Shown here piece by piece: positions 3,150-21,817 of a DNA stretch of 32,702 bases (positions are counted from its first letter, which is position 1; every line of letters starts with the position of its first letter). The position numbers and the translations under genes are program-made. Origin of the DNA: a virus (lineage: Duplodnaviria > Caudoviricetes); the IMG/VR virus record IMGVR_UViG_3300012347_000095, positions 1 to 32,702 of that record; one strand, written 5' to 3'. The notes under the pieces are model-generated. The model was given only the letters and a program-made list of their open reading frames with translations. It was not told where the DNA came from and did not search any database.

Positions 3150-3515
3150 ATGCGCATCGAGATGAACATTCGCCTAGACGTCCGTGGTGCTCGCAACAGC
3201 ATCAGGGACTGCGAGATCAGGGCCAACCAAGCCCTAGACTTTATCGGTCGCAACATTGGGTACTACAGGGCTCGACGCTATGACCACCAAGCTGAGCGTG
3301 ACGACGGCACGCTTGAGTACCAACAAAACATTTTGGTGGCGGTCGACATCGATGCCATGTCGCTCAGCTTTGCTGACGACATCAACGAGCTGTGCCGCCT
3401 ACTGCAACAGGACTGCATTGCCATCAATCAACAAGGCACGACCAGCGGCTGGGTGATCGGCCCACACCCAGAACGCTACGGTAAATTTAATTTCGAAAAG
3501 TTTGTACCAGTATAA
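3150..3515 (+). CDS. putative SAM lyase-like early protein
   Basis: 121 aa from ATG 3150 with GGGGA SD; LCxxLxQDCIA, GxxIGP and GxFN resemble phage SAM lyase-like proteins. CDS is secure, function tentative. Confidence 0.45.
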   Translation: MRIEMNIRLDVRGARNSIRDCEIRANQALDFIGRNIGYYRARRYDHQAERDDGTLEYQQNILVAVDIDAMSLSFADDINELCRLLQQDCIAINQQGTTSGWVIGPHPERYGKFNFEKFVPV

Positions 3516-3530
3516 AAACTGTGATATACT
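3502..3530 (+). promoter_or_regulatory. sigma70-type promoter P3 ahead of the recombination/replication genes
   Basis: TTGTAC-N17-TATACT with extended TG (CTGTGATATACT). Confidence 0.75.
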
Positions 3531-10612: not shown

Positions 10613-11122
10613 ATGCAACGCTATATCGGCACAAAGATCATCAACGCTGAGCCAATGAACCGACAGAAGTACAACGACTTCCGTGGCTGGACATTGCCAG
10701 AAGATGAGGACGGAATGGACGAGGGTTACCTTGTCGAATACCTTGACGGCGGCAAGCCCAACACAGACAAGTTCGAGGGCTACGTTAGCTGGTCACCGAA
10801 AGAGCAATTCGAAAAAGCTTATCGTCAATCAGACAACCTGTCGTTTGGTTTGGCGCTCGAGGCTTTGAAGGATGGCAAGCGCATCGCTCGCGCTGGCTGG
10901 AACGGCAAGGACATGTGGCTGTCACTGAGCTGCGGTGAGACTCGTGAAGTTTCTTCGTCTGGCTTCTGGTCACAAAACAATCGTGAGTACGCTGACTCTT
11001 TGGGCGGTGCTGCTACTGTGTTGCCATGCATCACCATGAAGGTTGCCACTGGTGAGATCTTGATGGGTTGGCTCGCATCGCAAAGCGACATGCTCGGCGA
11101 AGACTGGGTGATCCTCGAATGA
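10613..11122 (+). CDS. two-domain protein with C-terminal DUF2829 (Tad2-like)
   Basis: FG.ALEALK.G.RIAR.GWNGK.MW...GWLASQ.DML.EDW; N-terminal YIGTK...GYLVEY...SWSPK domain. Confidence 0.8.
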   Translation: MQRYIGTKIINAEPMNRQKYNDFRGWTLPEDEDGMDEGYLVEYLDGGKPNTDKFEGYVSWSPKEQFEKAYRQSDNLSFGLALEALKDGKRIARAGWNGKDMWLSLSCGETREVSSSGFWSQNNREYADSLGGAATVLPCITMKVATGEILMGWLASQSDMLGEDWVILE

Positions 11123-11442: not shown

Positions 11443-11605
11443 AGATCAAGAGGACGGCACAGTCGCCGTCGCAATAGAGTTTGGTGAAGGTGGTGGAGAT
11501 CCAACTAGCGGCGCCCACAACATGGCCGTGACAATGGTCAACATCACCGCATCAGCAATGGGTCAAATGGTTAATGAACAAGGAGAGATGAACAATGGAA
11601 AATAA
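11417..11605 (+). CDS. hypothetical protein
   Basis: 62 aa from ATG 11417 (MSKAIVTLED); AAGGGG SD. Confidence 0.7.
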   Translation: MSKAIVTLEDQEDGTVAVAIEFGEGGGDPTSGAHNMAVTMVNITASAMGQMVNEQGEMNNGK

Positions 11606-12044
11606 TTTTTACCGCACAGCGGATTGGTTGACAGCCTGCGGCAAAGTGCCGTCGGTCGAAACTGCATCATTGCAAATCGGTTGCGACATCGAAGAGCAGG
11701 TCGAGTTCCTCGAGTGCTTGATGCTTGGCCATGACGGCAATCAAACGCTTTTGAATGAAGCCATTCGTGGCTTGAAGCGCGTGGCCACAGCACTGAAGAC
11801 TGGCGCAGACACTGCAACAGTTGGCGAAGGTGATCGCGTGAATGCACTCGATGCATTGTGCGATCGTGAAGTGACAGGCAACGGCGTGGCCCACCTGCTT
11901 GGCTTCAACAAACCCATGGCCGACCAAGCTGTGTTGGACTCCAACGAAGCGAAGCTCGTTGACGGTGAGCCGATCATCCTCGAGGGCGGCAAGATCGGTA
12001 AGCCTGAAGGCTGGACCGCACCTGACTTGTCGGACTTCGTATGA
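11595..12044 (+). CDS. MazG/PRA-PH-like NTP pyrophosphohydrolase
   Basis: EE..E, LDALCD..V...G, SN..K, GKI.KP.GW..PDL motifs. Confidence 0.8.
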   Translation: MENNFYRTADWLTACGKVPSVETASLQIGCDIEEQVEFLECLMLGHDGNQTLLNEAIRGLKRVATALKTGADTATVGEGDRVNALDALCDREVTGNGVAHLLGFNKPMADQAVLDSNEAKLVDGEPIILEGGKIGKPEGWTAPDLSDFV

Positions 12045-12277: not shown

Positions 12278-12305
12278 AAAAAGGGAGCCTCGGCTCCCTT
12301 TCTTA
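12276..12305. terminator. bidirectional intrinsic terminator
   Basis: AAAGGGAGC-CTCG-GCTCCCTTT stem; A7 on the left gives the - strand U-tract, TTTCTT on the right; sits between convergent arms. Confidence 0.9.
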
Positions 12306-15035
12306 TTCGTCTATCGGGTTGCCCTCGATGTCGAGACCCTCTTTCAATCGTTGGATCTTTAGCTTTTGGAAGTCGCGTTCTTTGGCTGCGTTCTCAGGTG
12401 TGATTGCACCCTTGTTCTCCAGCCTATTGACTCGCTTGACCTCAGCCTCCAAACCTTGTATCAGCTTGCGACGATCAGCTGCCTCAAACTTCTCAGACAA
12501 GTCGAGGTCGACTGGCCTGATCTTGATGCCCACCGTTTGCGCAATAGCGTACTTGGCCTGCACTGGTAGGCCGTCCTTGCCCACGCCTGTGTAGCCAAGC
12601 ACTGGTTCGCCAACTTGATTTGCGATCACGTTGAGGGCGCGATCCCAATGGTAGTTGCCGACGGCCACCGCAGGGGTGAACTGTTGCCACATCCACTTGC
12701 CACGCTTAGCTGCGGCCTCGGCGCTGGTATCGTTCTTTTCAACGATCTCTTTGCCGTAGAAGGGGTCTTTGTTCCACAGCATGGCGCCGACCACGTTGAG
12801 GATGGGGCTGCTGGGGGTGAGGGGCTGCAGCAATGGAATGCCGCCAGCGTTGGAGTGAGCGTCGAGCAGGTCGCCGCCAGGGAACACTCGGCTCACGTCC
12901 AAGAACAACGGCAGGTTGGTCACGTCATCCATACCCATGCGGATCGCCTTGGGTGTGCCCAACGTGGCGCTTGCACCCTTCATCCATGGCGGCAGGTTCT
13001 TACGTTGGTCTTTCTCCAACTCGCGCGCACGCTCACGGAACTCAGGGTCCGTTACGTAACGTCGCACAACTTCCCACCAATCCTCATCCTCGCCACCACC
13101 AAGGCTTGCGGCCATGGCGTACATCATCGCGTTGACGGTGTACAGCGCAGCGGCTGGGGCAGCATAGCGCCATGGCTGCTCGAGCGCAGTTTGGGCTAGG
13201 GTTGGGACCACCTTGTAGGTGTAGCTGAAGAACGGCAGCGCATAGTCGCGCAGCTTGCGCGCACCGCTTGGCAAGTCGTCGTAGGTGAAGATGTACTTCT
13301 GCGCATAGTCAACCGCATCATCAGGGCCTAGGCCGCGCTGACGAGCCTCACGGTATATCAGGTATCGGAAGAACAAATCTTCGGCCTCGTAGGCTTTTCC
13401 TGCAGGTTTGCGCAGCCAAAACGACAGAGCATTCCACACAGCATCCACACCTTGGGCAGCCTTGGACTCACTGGCTGTGGCCAACACCTTGAGTTGCTCG
13501 GGCATGTCGTTAAGCAAGTCGGCGCGATTGAACGTGCCGCCAAACAAGCCAACGCCCTTGGCCTCCTCGATCATGGGGTGACCCTTGACCAAGTCACGGA
13601 TCGTGCCGATGTACTTGTGCGCATCCCAATAGGAGATGCCAGCGAAGTGTGCCATGGTCAAGTTGGACAACACGTTGTTGGCGTGCGAGACTGGGTTGAG
13701 AACTGTCTTGCCCTCTTTCCACATGCTCAAACCCTTGAGGTAGATCTTCATCAGATCGCTCTGCATGGATGAGTCAAATGCCACGAGGTGGTCCATCACT
13801 TCGGCGGGCACCCACTTGTTGGCCAGCTTGCCATAGGTCTTAGCCTTGGTTCCTTCGACCGTACTGTTGGGCACCTGCACGTAGCCCTCTTGCTCGCGCT
13901 TGACAGCCACGGTGTTGGCCAGGTTCTCATACAGTCGACCAAGTGCGATGTCGCGTTGGCTCTTGTTGTAGCCCATCACGAAGCGGAACATGGCATCACG
14001 GATCTCGCCCATGTCGTCACGCTCATCGCGGGTGTAGTCACGCCACATGGTGATCTCGGTGTCGTTCTGCGCATCGAAGTCATCGTCGCGAACTTCCCAC
14101 CCTTGGTCAATCCAATCCTGCTTGTCAGCGACAGGCACGTTCTTGAAAATGCCACGAGCCTTGAGGCTGGAGCCGCCGATACCTTGCATGGTTTTCTTGC
14201 GGCCAAGCAATCCTTTGACGGCTTTCATCCACGCCTTGGTTTCGTCCTTGAGCTTTGACTCATAGAAGCGTGGTAGGTACTTGCCGTCCCATCGACCAGC
14301 GGCGTCTTCGCTCAACATTCCCAAGCGGACAAGCTCAGCCGACTGCTCGGACATGATCGACTTCATGGATGCGGCCAACTCGAGGATGTGCTTAGGCGGC
14401 TTTGATCCGCGCTTGAGTTCGCCCTCGATCACGTCGCTGATCATTTGACGTTCTTGGTCTGACAGATCTTTCATCTTGCCAGCCACCTCGACGGTGAGGT
14501 TTTGCGCGCGCTCGATCTCCACCTTCATCTTGCGCAGTGCGCGAGATAGGTCTTGGCTGATGGGCTTGAGTTTGATTTTCTCCAACACCACGTTGGCCAC
14601 ATCGGACACAGCACGATACGCTTTGGCGCCAGCACCGAAACGAAAGTTGCCCAACTCGTCACGCGCCAACAGCCACCCATTGGTGGCCTTGCTCACGGTC
14701 TTTGTTGGTACTGATGCCGCACCCTTACGCTTGGCCAACATCATGTCGGCTGGGTGTTCGTAGCGCCAATCAGCAGCAGCCTCGACGAAGCCGTTGTAGT
14801 CGTTGTCCACAAACTCGTCGATGGTTTTGTAGCCAGCCGCCTCGGCGCGCTGCTGCAAGTATTCTTGTTGAGCCTTGGCATCTTCAGACAAGTCAAGCGT
14901 GCGATTGCTCATCTGAATGTCGACCTTGCCGACGATAGAGTCGACACCATTCAACACGAGGAAAGCCTTCATCTCGGCCATGCCGACGATGGTCTGCTCC
15001 CCGTCCTTGGTGTTGAACTTGTAGGTGCAGCTCAT
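12303..15035 (-). CDS. large putative internal virion/ejected protein
   Basis: 910 aa, mostly helical; last gene of the structural arm; no catalytic motif recognised. Confidence 0.75.
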   Translation of the reverse strand: MSCTYKFNTKDGEQTIVGMAEMKAFLVLNGVDSIVGKVDIQMSNRTLDLSEDAKAQQEYLQQRAEAAGYKTIDEFVDNDYNGFVEAAADWRYEHPADMMLAKRKGAASVPTKTVSKATNGWLLARDELGNFRFGAGAKAYRAVSDVANVVLEKIKLKPISQDLSRALRKMKVEIERAQNLTVEVAGKMKDLSDQERQMISDVIEGELKRGSKPPKHILELAASMKSIMSEQSAELVRLGMLSEDAAGRWDGKYLPRFYESKLKDETKAWMKAVKGLLGRKKTMQGIGGSSLKARGIFKNVPVADKQDWIDQGWEVRDDDFDAQNDTEITMWRDYTRDERDDMGEIRDAMFRFVMGYNKSQRDIALGRLYENLANTVAVKREQEGYVQVPNSTVEGTKAKTYGKLANKWVPAEVMDHLVAFDSSMQSDLMKIYLKGLSMWKEGKTVLNPVSHANNVLSNLTMAHFAGISYWDAHKYIGTIRDLVKGHPMIEEAKGVGLFGGTFNRADLLNDMPEQLKVLATASESKAAQGVDAVWNALSFWLRKPAGKAYEAEDLFFRYLIYREARQRGLGPDDAVDYAQKYIFTYDDLPSGARKLRDYALPFFSYTYKVVPTLAQTALEQPWRYAAPAAALYTVNAMMYAMAASLGGGEDEDWWEVVRRYVTDPEFRERARELEKDQRKNLPPWMKGASATLGTPKAIRMGMDDVTNLPLFLDVSRVFPGGDLLDAHSNAGGIPLLQPLTPSSPILNVVGAMLWNKDPFYGKEIVEKNDTSAEAAAKRGKWMWQQFTPAVAVGNYHWDRALNVIANQVGEPVLGYTGVGKDGLPVQAKYAIAQTVGIKIRPVDLDLSEKFEAADRRKLIQGLEAEVKRVNRLENKGAITPENAAKERDFQKLKIQRLKEGLDIEGNPIDE

Positions 15036-15523
15036 TAGGCGCCCAATTCTTGGTCAATGATGATGAGGCCGCACTTGTCGTCGCCAATCAACTCGAGGCG
15101 TGCGAGCAAATCGCCGTACTCACCAACGCTCTTGCGTTGGGTCTCGAGGAATTGGAGAAGGAATTGTTTTGTGATCGCGCACTTGCACTCGTCGTACCAA
15201 GTGGAGTAGTTCTCCATCAGCTCGACCTCAGTGTCGAACGCAACTTCAATAGCGTCCATCAAACCAGATGGTTTGTCGCGCATAGCTTCGATCATTGGGA
15301 TGTTTGCAACAGAGCCACGATCGTTCATGTAGTCGGCCAGCTTCTGATAGTGAGTCAGCTCATCAGCACTCTCGCCAGCAAAGAACTTTTGCGCACCGAA
15401 GAAACCCATGCGCTGCATGTGATTCGATAGGTGCTTGTATAGGTTGGATGCGAACAGCTCCGCATGCACAGCCTTGTCCAAAATAGTTTGAGTCTCTGGC
15501 TTGAGAAAGTTACGGGTTGCCAT
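15035..15523 (-). CDS. ferritin (non-haem ferritin-like)
   Basis: E..AS..Y, GAQKFF...S.DE..H..KL.DY..DRG, then E and Q ferroxidase-type residues; AAGGA SD. Confidence 0.85.
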   Translation of the reverse strand: MATRNFLKPETQTILDKAVHAELFASNLYKHLSNHMQRMGFFGAQKFFAGESADELTHYQKLADYMNDRGSVANIPMIEAMRDKPSGLMDAIEVAFDTEVELMENYSTWYDECKCAITKQFLLQFLETQRKSVGEYGDLLARLELIGDDKCGLIIIDQELGA

Positions 15524-15532
15524 TTTGATTCC

Positions 15533-18500
15533 TTACTTGCAATTGATTTTGATGAGGCCGTCTTCTTCGAGTTGGCCAACGATGTCGTAGAAGTTCTCTT
15601 CGACTTTTTTGATTTCCGCGCTGAGCGGGTTATTTTCCACCTGCTCTTGCACGCGGGTAAGCTTCAGGCCACGAGCACCACGAAGGTCCGTGAACAACTT
15701 GGTCAACGAGAGTTGTAGTTGCTCAGATCCAGCCCGTCCTTGAACGCTGCCTTGAACTCCTCGTCGAACTGCTTCGCCACCAAGTCCCGCTTGATCACTT
15801 CCTCGGGCGTCAGGATACGAGGCGGTTGTGGCTCGATATACGGCCTCCCCAATTCGTCCTTCTTGAAATTCACTTTCTGTTGCATTTTGTAACCTCTCTT
15901 TCAGTCCTGATTGTATCACAGGTGTGATGTCTCTCAGGTTTGCAATCTTTGCATTACCTTGTCCACGTGAGTTGTCGACCACGATCAACTTAAACATTGG
16001 GTTGTCACCGAACTCTTCTTGTAGTTTTCTTACAACAGAGCTTGAGCCAGCGTGACCCTTGACCAATGCGTCAATGGTAACGGTGCGACCCATGCGTTCT
16101 GCTCGGGTAAGCACGCCGTTACGCATAGCTTCAACAGGCTCTCGATAGACATAGACAATGCGCACTTTGTTGCCAGCCTTGAGCGCCGACTCCACATTAC
16201 GCTTGGCCTTGTCGTAGCTGGAAAGTGTCCCGTCCAAAACGGTGTGAGCCTTGTTAAGCATGTTGCCTACCAACTCGTTGGCTGTAGACTTGCCAGCGCC
16301 GCCACCGCCAGCCATGAATGCAACGATGCCAGCGTCGTTGTTTGCAATTCGACTTTCAAACATTGCTTGCGTCAAGAAGCTAGAAGCCTCGTGCACTTCA
16401 GCCGCACGTGAGCGATCAGCACGGTACTCGGGTGACAGCTCGCGCACCATGTCGGTATCCAAGATGCGACCGCCGTCTGTGCCTTTGAGGTTCTCGTACT
16501 CGCCAATGACCTGCTCAATGTCTGCATTGATGCGCTCTTGAAGGGCGTCGCCAATGTTGGTTTCAGCACGCTTGCTGAACATGAACGTGGAGCCAGCCTT
16601 CTCAAACACTGCGTTAGCGTCATCGGCTTCTGACTTGGCCACACGGGCTGCGCCAAACTCCAACTTGAATGAAGGGGCTGCGGTGTTGAGTTGCGGGCGC
16701 ACCTTGATGATGTCCATCATCTCGCGCTCGGTAGGCTTGCGCACCAAGTCGTTGCCAGATTCTTGAGTGCTTATTTTTTGAGCAACCATCTGCGGCTTGC
16801 GCTGCACCATGGTCTGCTCTGACGACTTGCCCACGGCCTTGACTGGCACATCAGAGTTGAGTACCACGGCCGTGCCTTGGGCGCGATTGATGTAGCCACG
16901 GAAGCCAGCGTCAAGAACGCCAGACTCGAACGCGTTAGGTTCAGCAGAAAGCTTCAGCGTCCCAAGAGATGGGTCATACAGATTGCTTAGGTTTGCGGTG
17001 TAGACATTGGTGCCCAAGCCAATCTCTGGTTGGGGAATGCCACCCTCCATGGGGAGGTAGAAGTAGACGCGGCGCTTGATGCGTGGGTCAACGCCAGCGC
17101 CAGACAGGCGCGCTTGCTCCGCGCCCTTGATGCCAGAACCAAAGCTGGTTCCAGACAGTACGCTTAGCCCTGCGCTTCGTCCGTAGTGGATGGCGCCTTC
17201 GACCTTGACTGCATCGCCCTGATCGCGCCCAATGCTGGATCTTCCGATAGGTTCTGGAGATCCTGCACGCTTGCTGAATTGGACGCCGCCGAGGGATTGC
17301 TTGAGCTTGGCGACTTCGGCTGGGTCGAGTCCGAGGTTTCGGATGTCGCCATCGCTGAGGCTGGCAAGCTCTTGGATGCTGTCGTAAGCTCGTCGGACCA
17401 CAGGTGCTGCGTTACCAGCTCCTTGATCCCCTCGAGCCTGTCCACTGTCAGCGCCTCGACCCCGTCCTTGTTTAGCACGCGATTGATTGCGTTGTCCGTG
17501 AGCGTCCGCTGTTGGGGCGCCATTGAATCTAGCAGATCCAACGGAAACACTTGTCTCACCCTCGCGTACATATCTTTCAATTGACGTTGCTCGTTCATCA
17601 TCATTACCTTTCCACTTCATGACCACCACATCTGGGTAGCCATCGGATTCTTTCCACCCACCGTCTGCCCAAAACTTTTTCAGGTCAGCTATTTGGTTGG
17701 CGTCGTAAAAGCTTTCGTCGAATGGGATTGAACCAATCGTCTCGAAGCCGAATTGGCTATACATCTCTGGCAAGAATCCATCAGGGAAGCGCTTGCTCTT
17801 GACGGCGAACGCATCCAAGATGGTCGCACCTTCTTGTATAGCTTTTGTGATGATAGCAGGAATTCCAACACCTTGCGCACCAACCTCGTTGTTGGTCACC
17901 GACACGACCTCGACCTCGTTATCCGAGACGCCGTCGATCATGTCCTTGTACCAAGGCGCGCCGCGCTTGAGGCCAAAGAAAACTTGGATGCCCTTGTCGC
18001 CACCTTGCTTGCCGAGTTGGTAGACGCTGAAGGACTTGTCCTTGATGCCAGCCTTGACTTGGTCGGGCGTGTACATGGTGAGCGCGGCAGCACCTTCGTT
18101 CGCGGCAAGTGCGTCGACGAACTCTTGCACAGACACACCGCCCTCGGCCTTGGTCTTGCCAGACACGAGCCAATTGTCGTTAGCCAAGGCGAGTGAAGCC
18201 TCGGCCTGTCGTGCAGATTTGATGGCCTTGTAGCCGCCCTCTGACACGGATGCCGCGATCTCTGGCGTGATCTCTTGCACGGGCAGCACGCGATCGAATG
18301 CGTACCATGCACCAGCCTCTTTGTTGCCAAGCGTGGGGACTTTGTTTTCGAAGTAGTCGCGGTAGATCAACTCATAGTTGATACCCTTGGCGAGCTTGCC
18401 GACCACCTTGCCACGAAGGCCAAGCGGGTAGGAGGGGTGCATCTTCGTGCCCTCTTCACCAAGCTTGATGGTGGGGTTTTGTTTGTCGACCTCGATGACC

Positions 18501-21500
18501 AACATGGCGTCGCCTTGACGATAGCCTGCATACTCTTGATCGATGGTCTCGCGACGGAAGCGATCGAGGTTTGGCAGACCGTGGATCTGCGCCTCTTTCT
18601 TTTCCAAGATCTTAGCCAACGCACCGCGTTGATCAAACGACAAGCCATCGATGTACTCGATGATGTTGGGTGACTCAAAGCCAACGAAATCTGGCAGTGA
18701 GTTTTTATTTGCGGGTGAGCGAACAATCTCGTCCAACGCGCGCAAGTTTTCAACGCTGATTCGCTTGTCCTTGAGGTACGCCTCAACGGTTTGAATGTAC
18801 GCCTGAGAGATGGTTGCGTTTGTCAAATGGCTGTTGCCATTCATGGCGTGCACAAGGATGTAGTCGCTGTTGTTGACCACGTTCATGATCTTGGTCAGCG
18901 TTGCGCCACCACGCACAGCCCACACCACATTGCTCGCTACGTTCGCAGGCAGAGCCACAAAGTTTGGACCACCCATCATCTCGATGGGGAACTCGAGTTG
19001 GCTGCCGTCGATACCTGTGTAGCTCACGCCAGCGTCGGTCAAGTCGGCCTTGATACCCATGACTCGCTTGCCCACCAAGTCCTTGATCTCAATCGTTGGC
19101 AGCTTCACCAAGTCGCGCGAGCGCGCAGAGTACATGACGCCATCGATGACGGCCTCTTCTTTTGCGACTGGGCCAACTGTTGGTGCAGCCTTCTTAGGTT
19201 CAGCGGTGGTGTCCTTCTCGTTGATTGCCTCAGCGTAGGCTGTGGTCAACAAGTCGCGCGCCTTCTCCACGTCTTTGATGTACTTGGTGACGAAGTCATT
19301 GCCGTACTCTTTGCGTGCACCAGTGAGGATGTCATTGAGCTTGGCCAAGATCTGCTTCGCAACCTCGGCAAAATCTTTGTTGCCCATCTTCGTGCGCAAC
19401 TGCTCCCAAAAGTCAGCGCGCTTTGAGATCGCCTGCACCATGAAGGCGGGGATCTCTTCGTCGAGCTTGTCTTCTGTGTAGTTGAACTCGCGAGCAAACT
19501 CGCCACGCATCTCTTCTTTGAACAAAGAGTTGAGCGCAGCATTCAGCTTGGCGCGAGTCTCTTGCGGCAGACCGTGGTGAGCCTCATGCATTACCACAAA
19601 CAGCGGCGAATCTTCAGTGTCGTCGGCAACAAAAATGTTGTCACCACCAAGGCGATCGATCAAGCCATTTGGCATGGCCGATTGATTGCCTGACTCGTAG
19701 CGCATGACGGTGAGCGTCTTGCCCAACAGCTTGGCCACGGCACTGGCCACCTTGTGAGACTCGTTCATCTCAGCCTGTGGCACTGCGGAAATCTCGACGT
19801 TGTCCTTGATCAACTCTTTGCGAACTGAGCTGATGACGCGCATCGATGCGGCAGGCGCCAGCTTCAGCTCGGTAGGTTGAGCACCTTGCACATCGGGCGC
19901 AACGGCGCCTGTTGTTGGGGCGACTGCGGCTCCAATGGTAGGTGCTTGCTGTCCTTCTTGCGCTGCTTGGATGGCTTGAGTGGTTTGAGTGCCAAGGGTT
20001 GTCTCCTGTGGGGTTGCGGTTTGATAGCCAGCAAGACGGAACTTGCCAGTGGGTAATGGTTCGACCGTCCATTGGAGGTCGGGGAACATGCGTTGGCGAC
20101 CAGCCAAAGCCTGCTCAGCGTCAGGCTTTGTGAGGTATCCATCGCCGCGTCGACCGTACCACTCTTGGGTCAGAGTGGTAGGCTGTTGGCCGTTGACCGC
20201 TCCAGCAGCAGCAACCTGTCCACCGCCGAGTTGAGCTGCGGTGGTAGCAGCAGCCACTCCCCCTGTTGGGCCAGTGACGCTAGATTCTGTAGCGCCCACG
20301 CCTCCGCTAAGCTCAACGCCTGCGCCTGCACCGCTAGGTACATTCGTGGTTCCAACTGCGCTTGGTACGCCGACATTGGTTGTCCCCAATCGTAGTTTGT
20401 CGAGACCGAACTGCTGCTCGATCTCTGGGTTGATTTGCACCTCTGCCAACGGCGTGACAGCAGGGGTTGCCACGGGCACGGGCACAACGACATCCACCAA
20501 GCCTGCAGCCTTTGTGGGGCTGTCGGCTGGGGTGAAGTTGGTGAGTTGGGTAACGGGGCGCTGAGGCGTAAGGAAACCGCGATCGCGGGCCATTTGCTCA
20601 GCGGTTGATACCTCGGGTGCGGCAGGCTGAATTGGCTGCTCGTTGGCCCCGCTAAGGGTTGCGGCGACCTGCGGCGTTGTCATCATGGCGCCAGTCAAGC
20701 CGCCGACAACACCAGCCTCAGCCAATCCCTTGTTGAGTTCGATGTCCTTGCCCTGCAAATACTTGTCGAGCACGTTGCCGCCAAACTGTGCGGTCGTCTC
20801 CTCGATGGCATTGGTCAAGGTGTTGGCAGTGACCTGCGTGCCAGCCTGAAGCAGTCGCTGCCCAGCCAGTGCCAAGATCGCATTCTGCTTGGGCACAGGC
20901 ATGCCTTTAAACATGTCGCCCACTTTGTCGAACACGCCAAGCGGTAGCTTCTCTGTGCCGTACTCGATCGCGCCCTTCATCATGGCGATGCGCGAGTCAT
21001 CACCCTGCGCAAAGCTTTGGCCAGCGGCGGTGGTGGACATGCCAAGCAACATGCCCGCACGAAGCGGCGGCACGAATGCGGCGATCAATTGTTGTGCGAC
21101 CTGCGGCGAGTTTGCTGCCAACTTGGACATCAGCCATGGCGCCATCTCGTCACGGTTCCACGCACCAGCCATGGACTTCTTGCCAATGGCAGGGGTGAAG
21201 TCGCTCGCGGCCTTGGCCAAATACTCAGTGCCGAACATGTTGCCGACGCGCTGCATTGGCGTGAAGCCTGCGACTTGGAGGAACGGATCAATGACGGTCT
21301 TGTTGAAGACGTCGGCCGCCACAGTGGGGGTGTTGATGACGCCAGACAACATGCCTGCGGCGCCAGCTGCCGCACTGCCAAGCAGTGGGTTCTCTTCAGC
21401 GAATTGCTGACGACTGATCTGCCTAGCCAGCTCAGCTTCACGCTCTGGGTTGCGTGAGATCTCAGCGAATGTGGGGGTGTTCTGCGCAGCCAAGCCTTCG

Positions 21501-21817
21501 GCTGCTTTTTGGACTGGCAATGTGGCTGGCTCTTTGAGCATGCCACTGCGCAAGAGATCAGCCTTGGCGGCTGTCTCTTTGCTGATTGGACCAGCACCCA
21601 ACGACAAGCGTTGGTTGACGTTAGCCTGCTCTTGTTGTGGCGTTGGGGCCTGAGTCTCGAGCACGCTCTTGTACTCGGGCGCCACCACATCTTTGATGCG
21701 CTGGATGATGCCGCGCTCAGGTTCTACAAGCTTTTCGGTAGGGGCATCAAGCTCACCGCTAAACTCAACGAATCCTGTGGGCTTGTCAAGCTCGCCACTA
21801 AATTCTTCAAACGCCAT
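15533..21817 (-). CDS. giant polyvalent virion protein (HExxH peptidase, GNAT, ART-like, zeta-toxin-like kinase)
   Basis: 2094 aa; HEAHH at 19574-19588; LDAF..LP..Y..FGF at ~17607-18140; HY...YFY...NLYD...GFRGY at ~16850-17205; GGGGAGKS at ~16286-16309. Confidence 0.8.
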   Translation of the reverse strand: MAFEEFSGELDKPTGFVEFSGELDAPTEKLVEPERGIIQRIKDVVAPEYKSVLETQAPTPQQEQANVNQRLSLGAGPISKETAAKADLLRSGMLKEPATLPVQKAAEGLAAQNTPTFAEISRNPEREAELARQISRQQFAEENPLLGSAAAGAAGMLSGVINTPTVAADVFNKTVIDPFLQVAGFTPMQRVGNMFGTEYLAKAASDFTPAIGKKSMAGAWNRDEMAPWLMSKLAANSPQVAQQLIAAFVPPLRAGMLLGMSTTAAGQSFAQGDDSRIAMMKGAIEYGTEKLPLGVFDKVGDMFKGMPVPKQNAILALAGQRLLQAGTQVTANTLTNAIEETTAQFGGNVLDKYLQGKDIELNKGLAEAGVVGGLTGAMMTTPQVAATLSGANEQPIQPAAPEVSTAEQMARDRGFLTPQRPVTQLTNFTPADSPTKAAGLVDVVVPVPVATPAVTPLAEVQINPEIEQQFGLDKLRLGTTNVGVPSAVGTTNVPSGAGAGVELSGGVGATESSVTGPTGGVAAATTAAQLGGGQVAAAGAVNGQQPTTLTQEWYGRRGDGYLTKPDAEQALAGRQRMFPDLQWTVEPLPTGKFRLAGYQTATPQETTLGTQTTQAIQAAQEGQQAPTIGAAVAPTTGAVAPDVQGAQPTELKLAPAASMRVISSVRKELIKDNVEISAVPQAEMNESHKVASAVAKLLGKTLTVMRYESGNQSAMPNGLIDRLGGDNIFVADDTEDSPLFVVMHEAHHGLPQETRAKLNAALNSLFKEEMRGEFAREFNYTEDKLDEEIPAFMVQAISKRADFWEQLRTKMGNKDFAEVAKQILAKLNDILTGARKEYGNDFVTKYIKDVEKARDLLTTAYAEAINEKDTTAEPKKAAPTVGPVAKEEAVIDGVMYSARSRDLVKLPTIEIKDLVGKRVMGIKADLTDAGVSYTGIDGSQLEFPIEMMGGPNFVALPANVASNVVWAVRGGATLTKIMNVVNNSDYILVHAMNGNSHLTNATISQAYIQTVEAYLKDKRISVENLRALDEIVRSPANKNSLPDFVGFESPNIIEYIDGLSFDQRGALAKILEKKEAQIHGLPNLDRFRRETIDQEYAGYRQGDAMLVIEVDKQNPTIKLGEEGTKMHPSYPLGLRGKVVGKLAKGINYELIYRDYFENKVPTLGNKEAGAWYAFDRVLPVQEITPEIAASVSEGGYKAIKSARQAEASLALANDNWLVSGKTKAEGGVSVQEFVDALAANEGAAALTMYTPDQVKAGIKDKSFSVYQLGKQGGDKGIQVFFGLKRGAPWYKDMIDGVSDNEVEVVSVTNNEVGAQGVGIPAIITKAIQEGATILDAFAVKSKRFPDGFLPEMYSQFGFETIGSIPFDESFYDANQIADLKKFWADGGWKESDGYPDVVVMKWKGNDDERATSIERYVREGETSVSVGSARFNGAPTADAHGQRNQSRAKQGRGRGADSGQARGDQGAGNAAPVVRRAYDSIQELASLSDGDIRNLGLDPAEVAKLKQSLGGVQFSKRAGSPEPIGRSSIGRDQGDAVKVEGAIHYGRSAGLSVLSGTSFGSGIKGAEQARLSGAGVDPRIKRRVYFYLPMEGGIPQPEIGLGTNVYTANLSNLYDPSLGTLKLSAEPNAFESGVLDAGFRGYINRAQGTAVVLNSDVPVKAVGKSSEQTMVQRKPQMVAQKISTQESGNDLVRKPTEREMMDIIKVRPQLNTAAPSFKLEFGAARVAKSEADDANAVFEKAGSTFMFSKRAETNIGDALQERINADIEQVIGEYENLKGTDGGRILDTDMVRELSPEYRADRSRAAEVHEASSFLTQAMFESRIANNDAGIVAFMAGGGGAGKSTANELVGNMLNKAHTVLDGTLSSYDKAKRNVESALKAGNKVRIVYVYREPVEAMRNGVLTRAERMGRTVTIDALVKGHAGSSSVVRKLQEEFGDNPMFKLIVVDNSRGQGNAKIANLRDITPVIQSGLKERLQNATESEFQEGRIGEAVYRATTASYPDARGSDQAGLGGEAVRRGVQGSVQGRAGSEQLQLSLTKLFTDLRGARGLKLTRVQEQVENNPLSAEIKKVEENFYDIVGQLEEDGLIKINCK
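15703..15885 (-). CDS. nested +1-frame ORF after the zeta-like domain (candidate antitoxin)
   Basis: 60 aa; GAGAGG SD 7 nt upstream; own promoter copy; charged, helical sequence. Confidence 0.7.
   Translation of the reverse strand: MQQKVNFKKDELGRPYIEPQPPRILTPEEVIKRDLVAKQFDEEFKAAFKDGLDLSNYNSR
15910..15931 (-). promoter_or_regulatory. intragenic copy of the early promoter
   Basis: GACATCACACCTGTGATACAAT; 19/22 identical to 1394-1415; last 12 nt identical to 1978-1989. Confidence 0.75.
17164..17598 (-). CDS. nested +1-frame ORF after the GNAT domain (candidate antitoxin)
   Basis: GGAAAGGTA-ATGATGATG start region; first ~70 aa look globular and helical while the host frame is an R/G/A-rich linker. 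Confidence 0.55.
   Translation of the reverse strand: MNEQRQLKDMYARVRQVFPLDLLDSMAPQQRTLTDNAINRVLNKDGVEALTVDRLEGIKELVTQHLWSDELTTASKSLPASAMATSETSDSTQPKSPSSSNPSAASNSASVQDLQNLSEDPALGAIRAMQSRSKAPSTTDEAQG
19864..19995 (-). CDS. nested +1-frame basic peptide
   Basis: AGGAG-N7-TTG; MALKPLKPSKQRKK... (43 aa). Confidence 0.3.
   Translation of the reverse strand: MALKPLKPSKQRKKDSKHLPLEPQSPQQQAPLRPMCKVLNLPS
20170..20376 (-). CDS. nested +1-frame ORF
   Basis: GGGGA-N7-ATG; 68 aa Leu-rich helical sequence under a G/A/T-rich host linker. Confidence 0.5.
   Translation of the reverse strand: MSAYQAQLEPRMYLAVQAQALSLAEAWALQNLASLAQQGEWLLLPPQLNSAVDRLLLLERSTANSLPL

Follow-up and report, generated by a model that had tools for sequence, protein, structure and literature searches.

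A conserved nested gene with a promoter-like element of its own inside the zeta-1-type kinase domain of a giant phage gene

The window studied here, the whole stretch of DNA that was analysed, is a phage record of 32.7 kb. Its + strand carries genes of the replication type, and its − strand those for tail and lysis along with some that are very large. One of the very large genes contains, within a zeta-1-type kinase domain, a copy of the promoter motif of the phage, followed by a 60-codon gene in another reading frame. The motif exceeds what chance would produce, the site, its Shine-Dalgarno sequence, the start codon and the open frame are conserved among homologues to an identity as low as about 30%, and the surrounding domain has the fold type and the catalytic residues of zeta-1. 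We think that the embedded promoter probably expresses the nested gene early, and that the product would be an antitoxin that silences the kinase around it. The original prediction, which concerned the promoter copy, included neither the toxin-type kinase around the site nor the nested reading frame as a conserved partner gene. The features are as follows.

1394-1415, + strand: P1, intergenic promoter motif with palindrome (from sequence)
1978-1989, + strand: P2, intergenic extended −10 without palindrome (from sequence)
3519-3530, + strand: P3, third intergenic extended −10, CTGTGATATACT, without palindrome (from sequence; not in the original prediction)
15533-21817, − strand: 2094-codon polyvalent-type host gene (from domain content and homologues)
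15827-16567, − strand: zeta-1-type (permuted) P-loop kinase domain, residues 1751-1997 (from profile, fold and catalytic residues)
15910-15931, − strand, read 15931-15910: 22-nt copy of the phage promoter motif within the giant gene, GACATCACACCTGTGATACAAT (from likeness to P1; kept in homologues)
15910-15920, − strand: extended −10 element TGTG-A-TACAAT (above all kinase-domain control windows; synonymous-null p 0.002)
15915-15928, no strand: palindrome ATCACA-CC-TGTGAT (TCAC-N4-GTGA), probably the operator of an HTH regulator of the phage (from recurrence of the sequence)
15893-15898, − strand: Shine-Dalgarno-like GAGAGG, then 7 nt and ATG at 15885 (from sequence and family duplex energies)
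15703-15885, − strand: nested 60-codon gene, +1 frame, candidate antitoxin (from homologue conservation)

The embedded motif

The embedded site agrees with P1 in 19 of its 22 nt and with P2 throughout the final 12. In the 2094-codon frame it encodes DITPVIQ (residues 1963-1969, in the last helices of the kinase domain) with an ATA codon, one of 4 among the 99 isoleucine codons of the giant gene, and it is followed by GAGAGG-N7-ATG, the distance from the extended −10 to the nested ATG being 24 nt. The match to P1 and P2, the palindrome, the encoded peptide and the ribosome-binding layout are all as they were first described. A motif scan for the background frequency had also been suggested. The best match to P1 in 500 shuffles of the giant gene, which kept both its protein and its codon pool, was 18/22 (in 4 of the 500), and 19 was never reached. 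The looser pattern TGTGNTAHAMT was produced on the coding strand by 8 of 2000 shuffles, and occurs four times in the real window, at the three intergenic + strand sites (1405, 1979 and 3520) and at the embedded site. The embedded motif is real, beyond chance, and has the make-up of a sigma-70-type extended −10 element, with TG-N-TAnnnT at a usable distance from a start codon. Its −35 match is poor (score 2.0), as it is generally in the clade of the window, and any promoter here would thus be of the extended −10 type, with a transcription start predicted near 15903, 6-8 nt past TACAAT. Four of 14 RNA runs were examined; all consisted of contigs from relatives, evenly covered and perhaps derived from DNA, which give no reading of start, strand or level.

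The kinase domain and its giant host protein

The domain has a Pfam Zeta_toxin match, and a profile of 12 homologues matches gonococcal zeta-1 (6EPH) at an E-value of 5.5e-18. Its predicted fold (pLDDT 95.8) has a Foldseek TM of 0.84 to 6EPH, against 0.44-0.48 to classical zeta and PezT, and shows the permuted topology in which the catalytic Asp block lies ahead of the P-loop. Residues D1789, R1792, K1843, R1905 and R1911 align with D56, K59, K115, R175 and R181 of gonococcal zeta-1, in which D56, K115, R175 and R181 are catalytic or phosphate-binding (Rocker et al., PMC5923241), and the catalytic D1789, K1843, R1905 and R1911 are invariant across 57 sequences. The domain and the gonococcal epsilon-1/zeta-1 system (PMC5923241; PDB 6EPG/6EPH/6EPI) thus have the permuted kinase fold and the catalytic D, K, R and R in common; the differences are that the kinase here is one domain of a 2094-residue phage protein, and that the alignment gives no sign of a C-terminal OB domain. 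Among the contacts of zeta-1 to UNAM, K59 is aligned with an invariant Arg, and N75 falls inside an insertion and has no counterpart, so the substrate may differ. Judged by profile and model, the domain is of the zeta-1-type fold with the catalytic residues kept, and its toxicity is a prediction; zeta-1 itself lyses E. coli unless epsilon-1 is co-expressed (PMC5923241).

Homologues of the host gene (1191-3507 aa) carry the kinase at varied positions, mid-protein in many relatives, together with PF18760 and PF18857, which is the shuffling of unrelated domains that marks polyvalent proteins. These are giant multi-domain phage proteins, and zeta-like kinases are among their listed domains (PMC5512222). 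The original prediction referred to earlier notice of −10 elements embedded in genes for polyvalent proteins; Iyer et al. 2017 (PMC5512222) gives this no backing in its main text, where the word "promoter" occurs 0 times and neither promoters nor overlapping genes are mentioned. Host residues 1190-1498 had a pLDDT of 38 in a single-sequence fold, too low to be of use, and an atlas search with these residues and with the nested protein gave zero matches at 0.9 or more. From the place of the giant gene among tail, spanin and acetyltransferase genes, a neighbourhood that we take to resemble podovirus ejection clusters, we infer that the giant protein may be packaged and injected with the DNA.

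The nested gene

The homologue set consisted of 128 loci and the window. Two loci without an anchor (L136 and L137) were left out, and the 127 anchored ones comprise 95 distinct sequences in 58 clusters at 90% identity; L087, which lies at a contig end, was dropped from the alignment-anchored test, leaving 57 clusters. An ORF of 50-79 codons in the +1 frame, with its ATG 64-115 nt past the DNS codon and in the same helix, is present in 53 of the 58 clusters, and the other five are one contig end, two with an open frame but no ATG in the search window, and two in which the frame starts nearer the host stop. The overlapping ORF is also found in 17/17 held-out loci from bacterial genomes (28-61% identity, many of them Acidobacteria), and when a nested-protein profile was run against 1166 six-frame segments, the 13 best were these overlapping ORFs. 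A toxin-type gene and a small partner gene are in other words conserved together in 53/58 clusters and 17/17 held-out loci, which is the linkage that characterizes type II toxin-antitoxin pairs.

The sequence around the frame is also shaped by it. The +1 frame is open in 50/57 clusters and +2 in 8/57, against 64/228 and 55/228 in control windows, and where a host codon that can form the ATG allows T or C, T is used in 52 of 54 cases vs 18.7 expected. The median Shine-Dalgarno duplex energy of the family is −7.1 kcal/mol (n=43), vs −1.1 kcal/mol for 190 off-frame ATGs. In the kinase core substitutions favour position 3 of the host codon (0.54), whereas in the linker they shift to positions 1 and 2 (0.39, 0.51 and 0.31 for the three positions), and the fewest there fall on the base that comes second in the nested codon. 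Amino-acid identity in the linker is only a little higher for +1 (0.43) than for +2 (0.39) and the host frame (0.35). The host frame crosses the 3' half of the nested gene as a linker rich in R/G/Q, which make up 43% of it. By these sequence criteria we regard the nested ORF as a real, conserved gene. In 12/57 clusters the kinase gene ends soon after the domain, and the small gene overlaps its end in a toxin-first operon layout.

Residues 1-25 of the nested protein are dual-coded and of low complexity, and track the constraint on the host frame. The first half is flexible, the second half has an amphipathicity above its own shuffles in 49/53, and the median net charge of the family is +5. A profile of 47 nested proteins matched neither epsilon-1 nor any solved antitoxin at E up to 10, so that by sequence homology they fall outside the epsilon-1 family; Pfam, PHROGs, NCBIfam and PADLOC returned nothing for the nested protein, and the protein database holds one near-identical entry.

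Some related loci are worth mentioning in their own right. In the Acidobacteria loci L159, L160 and L162-L168 the zeta-1-type genes end just past the domain. A +1 ORF overlaps them and a sigma-70-like site is embedded in them, and on sequence grounds these are candidate unannotated toxin-antitoxin operons. In the only public phage record that matches (L169, MW202577), around 3233-3355, the zeta-1-type domain bears the annotation "thymidylate kinase", and a 40-codon overlapping ORF with the LN motif of the nested family is left unannotated. The window itself holds a second +1-frame nested ORF (17604-17164, − strand, 146 codons, of which about the first 72 are conserved). It follows an unnamed domain that is GNAT-like by eye, has a Shine-Dalgarno-like run and an R/G/Q-rich host linker, and is present in all 8 distinct sequences having that linker; no sigma-70 −10 was seen before it. 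It is a candidate second partner gene.

Proposed role of the nested gene

In the reading that we favour, the sigma-70 holoenzyme of the host would transcribe the small gene from about 15903 upon DNA entry, an early timing suggested by the likeness of the site to P1-P3. The small gene would then be translated, and the late mRNA could supply the product again when the giant protein is made. The 60-residue product may lie on the kinase and block it as does epsilon-1, which is an extended helical chain wrapping the kinase over the ATP site (PMC5923241). Both are small partners and helical rather than globular, the nested one by prediction; unlike in epsilon-1/zeta-1, the partner gene here lies downstream, with a +1 overlap, a promoter of its own and no sequence match to epsilon-1. 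The nested proteins are thus candidates for a new family of antitoxins to zeta-1-type kinases. The arrangement may have originated as a toxin-first overlapping toxin-antitoxin operon, a layout that 12/57 clusters still show, which was fused into polyvalent genes, after which the polyvalent frame would have read through the antitoxin gene as a linker.

It is conceivable, if unlikely, that the promoter and the nested gene are real and that the product does something other than inhibit, as a helper in folding or packaging, an activator, or an unrelated early effector travelling with the kinase domain. All of the conservation evidence speaks for expression and not for function, there is no sequence match to epsilon-1, and the net charge is compatible with other partners. 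Against such a role, the small gene stays closely linked to a toxin-type kinase all the way from the phage fusions to the stand-alone genes of Acidobacteria, and its product resembles epsilon-1 in size and in extended helical make-up. Phage toxin genes also keep such company elsewhere, as 89.4% of 191 MuF toxin genes have small ORFs after them (PMC5576092).

An antitoxin role has parallels in known systems. The toxin-first modules mqsRA and rnlAB have promoters inside the toxin gene (as cited in PMC10098735), and have in common with our case an antitoxin-specific promoter within the toxin coding sequence and a toxin-first, overlapping order (PMC10098735). They differ in that the antitoxin candidate here lies wholly within an ORF that continues, that the promoter bears the palindrome of the phage, and that a kinase domain in a probable virion protein takes the place of the toxin. 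The Rpn genes-within-genes likewise have an intragenic antitoxin with an internal promoter and an internal start, but RpnS is a separately translated C-terminal domain of RpnL (PMC10327210), whereas the product here comes from another frame and has no sequence in common with the toxin. In the MuF toxins of temperate phages a phage-borne toxin domain is followed by a small candidate immunity ORF, as here, but that ORF lies downstream of a C-terminal toxin domain (PMC5576092). A partner gene overprinted on the linker leaves the kinase domain free to sit anywhere in a polyvalent protein. The ShiLan element, an HNH gene hidden in phage methylase genes, also leaves the host frame free of stops, but is a homing element, whereas the cargo here is a small helical protein tied to the domain that it overlaps (PMC11855218). 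Internal promoters are found in rhs genes as well (PMC7043789). The portions available of PMC13551039 and PMC4803016 contain nothing on a layout with a nested partner. Each part of the arrangement has a precedent, and in the literature searched, which included few subscription papers, we found no paper that describes, within a zeta-type domain, a partner gene in another frame under a promoter of its own.

Conservation of the promoter and the palindrome

The promoter was scored with a generic sigma-70 score whose weights were fixed after the first loci had been seen, which makes the held-out loci the cleaner test. A promoter-like site ranks within the top 5% of kinase-domain windows in 36/57 clusters, the synonymous null is beaten in 28, and both hold in 27; as the clusters share ancestry, these are not counts of independent events. 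Among the promoter-bearing clusters the −10 has the register of the window in 9, a shifted one in 3, and 24 have a −35/17 nt/−10 layout. In the held-out bacterial-genome loci the promoter-like site is present in 16/17. A first version of the test, anchored on the first ATG, had 22, 25 and 20 of 53 clusters passing the synonymous, the positional and both tests, and was replaced by alignment anchoring because the −10 itself often makes an upstream ATG. The original prediction had staked itself on conservation of the motif at synonymous positions in homologues, and in many clusters it is kept. This supports that the embedded site behaves as a selected host-type promoter for the nested ORF, as far as sequence comparison goes.

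No high-scoring site was found at the place of the promoter in 21/57 clusters. Ten of these form one clade inside the group of the window (L028, L098, L021, L085, L022, L106, L040, L031, L037 and L039; FastTree support 0.999), which has kept the small gene and lost both the −10 and the palindrome. A wider upstream scan of this clade found weak, non-universal sites only, such as, in four members, a weak one that begins with TTGACA some 190 nt ahead of the DNS codon. In nine of the ten, ferritin lies upstream of the kinase domain. The promoter showed no tie to a temperate lifestyle, a tyrosine integrase having been found in only 2/6 near-complete relatives.

The palindrome has a narrower distribution. 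In the window it is carried by P1 and the embedded site, and P2 and the site at 3520 lack it; it is confined to the clade of the window, as the promoters of a distant group lack it. Across five related genomes there are 20 distinct TCAC-N4-GTGATA sites, 4 of them being the embedded site, against 0 for the reversed control. Most of the non-embedded sites fall in one + strand cluster, which in G003 and G004 begins at a divergent pair of HTH genes, and the sites whose context was inspected adjoin a −10-like hexamer. A palindrome common to intergenic promoter-like sites and to the embedded one is what defines a phage operator-promoter class, and since it recurs at promoter-like sites of relatives beside a divergent HTH pair, the likeliest reading of the sequence is that an HTH regulator of the phage uses it as an operator, which overlaps the −10. 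Such a regulator would control the embedded promoter via TCAC-N4-GTGA. In 119 of 121 pattern-matching proteins the residue that supplies the left half-site is one of two: 35 have Thr, in each case together with V-I-x or V-K-I, and 84 have Pro, in no case together with either, a split to which shared ancestry contributes. A CRP site was rejected, since relative to the CRP consensus the half-sites stand in the opposite order and are separated by 2 nt. After the intergenic promoters there is also a short hairpin, CCCAGC-(A)G(A/G)-TTCTGGG (at about 1445-1463 and 2001-2016 on the + strand of the window, and in L139, L141 and L145), which is absent downstream of the embedded promoter and which, we presume, resembles an antitermination site.

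It is quite improbable that the embedded site is instead a repressor operator or a silent relic, and that the long late mRNA is the sole source of the small protein, which would be made along with the kinase. The poor −35 match in the clade of the window, the ten-cluster clade that keeps the gene without the site, and the intact palindrome at the embedded site would all suit such an explanation. The element in common is however the −10 hexamer and not the palindrome, as seen in L017, which retains TGTTATAAT with the palindrome broken, and in the 24 clusters and most of the held-out loci that use the −35/17/−10 layout in another register.

Downstream genes and the end of the transcript

Two more features bear on what a transcript from the embedded site could include.

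15035-15523, − strand: ferritin-like gene, possible passenger on the same transcript
12280-12301, no strand: hairpin between the converging + and − gene blocks, the only strong terminator-like hairpin listed by the scan

The hairpin is likely a two-way terminator, and in this phage a transcript from the embedded site could run through the ferritin gene to it. That the promoter serves early expression of ferritin and the following genes, with the nested ORF incidental, is nevertheless very improbable. The ferritin gene does start 180 nt past the nested stop in the window, with the only strong listed hairpin further on, but it lies within 600 nt of the site in only 4/36 promoter-bearing clusters, and in many relatives the kinase is mid-protein. 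The conserved target is therefore the nested gene, and ferritin is at most a passenger; as a conserved target it is largely refuted, with co-transcription possible in this phage. Host RNA polymerase had originally been predicted to transcribe the nested ORF and possibly ferritin, and of this the first part has gained a conserved promoter-like site that behaves as if selected, while the second has been weakened. The Tad2-like (10613-11122), Nmad5 (143-655), MazG-like (11595-12044) and ferritin-like (15035-15523) genes of the window are a set with possible counter-defence functions.

That motif and ORF are mere by-products of the protein sequence and codon use of the host gene, given that the common I-T and V-I codons yield ATC-AC and GTG-AT and that +1 is open in 64/228 control windows, is hardly credible, being contradicted by the codon-preserving nulls, the 52/54 ATG-making codons, the Shine-Dalgarno energies, the three registers and the held-out set.

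Implications

An embedded promoter that expresses an antitoxin to the surrounding kinase would explain how a giant phage protein can have a potentially lethal type of enzyme in its midst although no immunity gene is visible. A bolder extension, which we offer tentatively and think rather doubtful, is that a cell-wall-precursor kinase is injected and its early antidote is encoded by the genome, so that a cell that destroys or silences the genome poisons itself, and that each toxic polyvalent domain has its own out-of-frame antidote cassette and is shuffled with it as a unit. If the first part is true, the only quick source of the antidote would be the operator-controlled promoter hidden in the same gene, and if the second is true, the nested gene at 17604-17164 would be another case.

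Some zeta toxins that are regarded as orphans may have partners that have been missed. The PezAT survey looked at upstream genes (PMC10532202), and this, together with the unannotated ORF in the matching public phage record, is the reason to think so. Linkers rich in R/G/Q in polyvalent-type proteins may then serve as a search signal for hidden genes.
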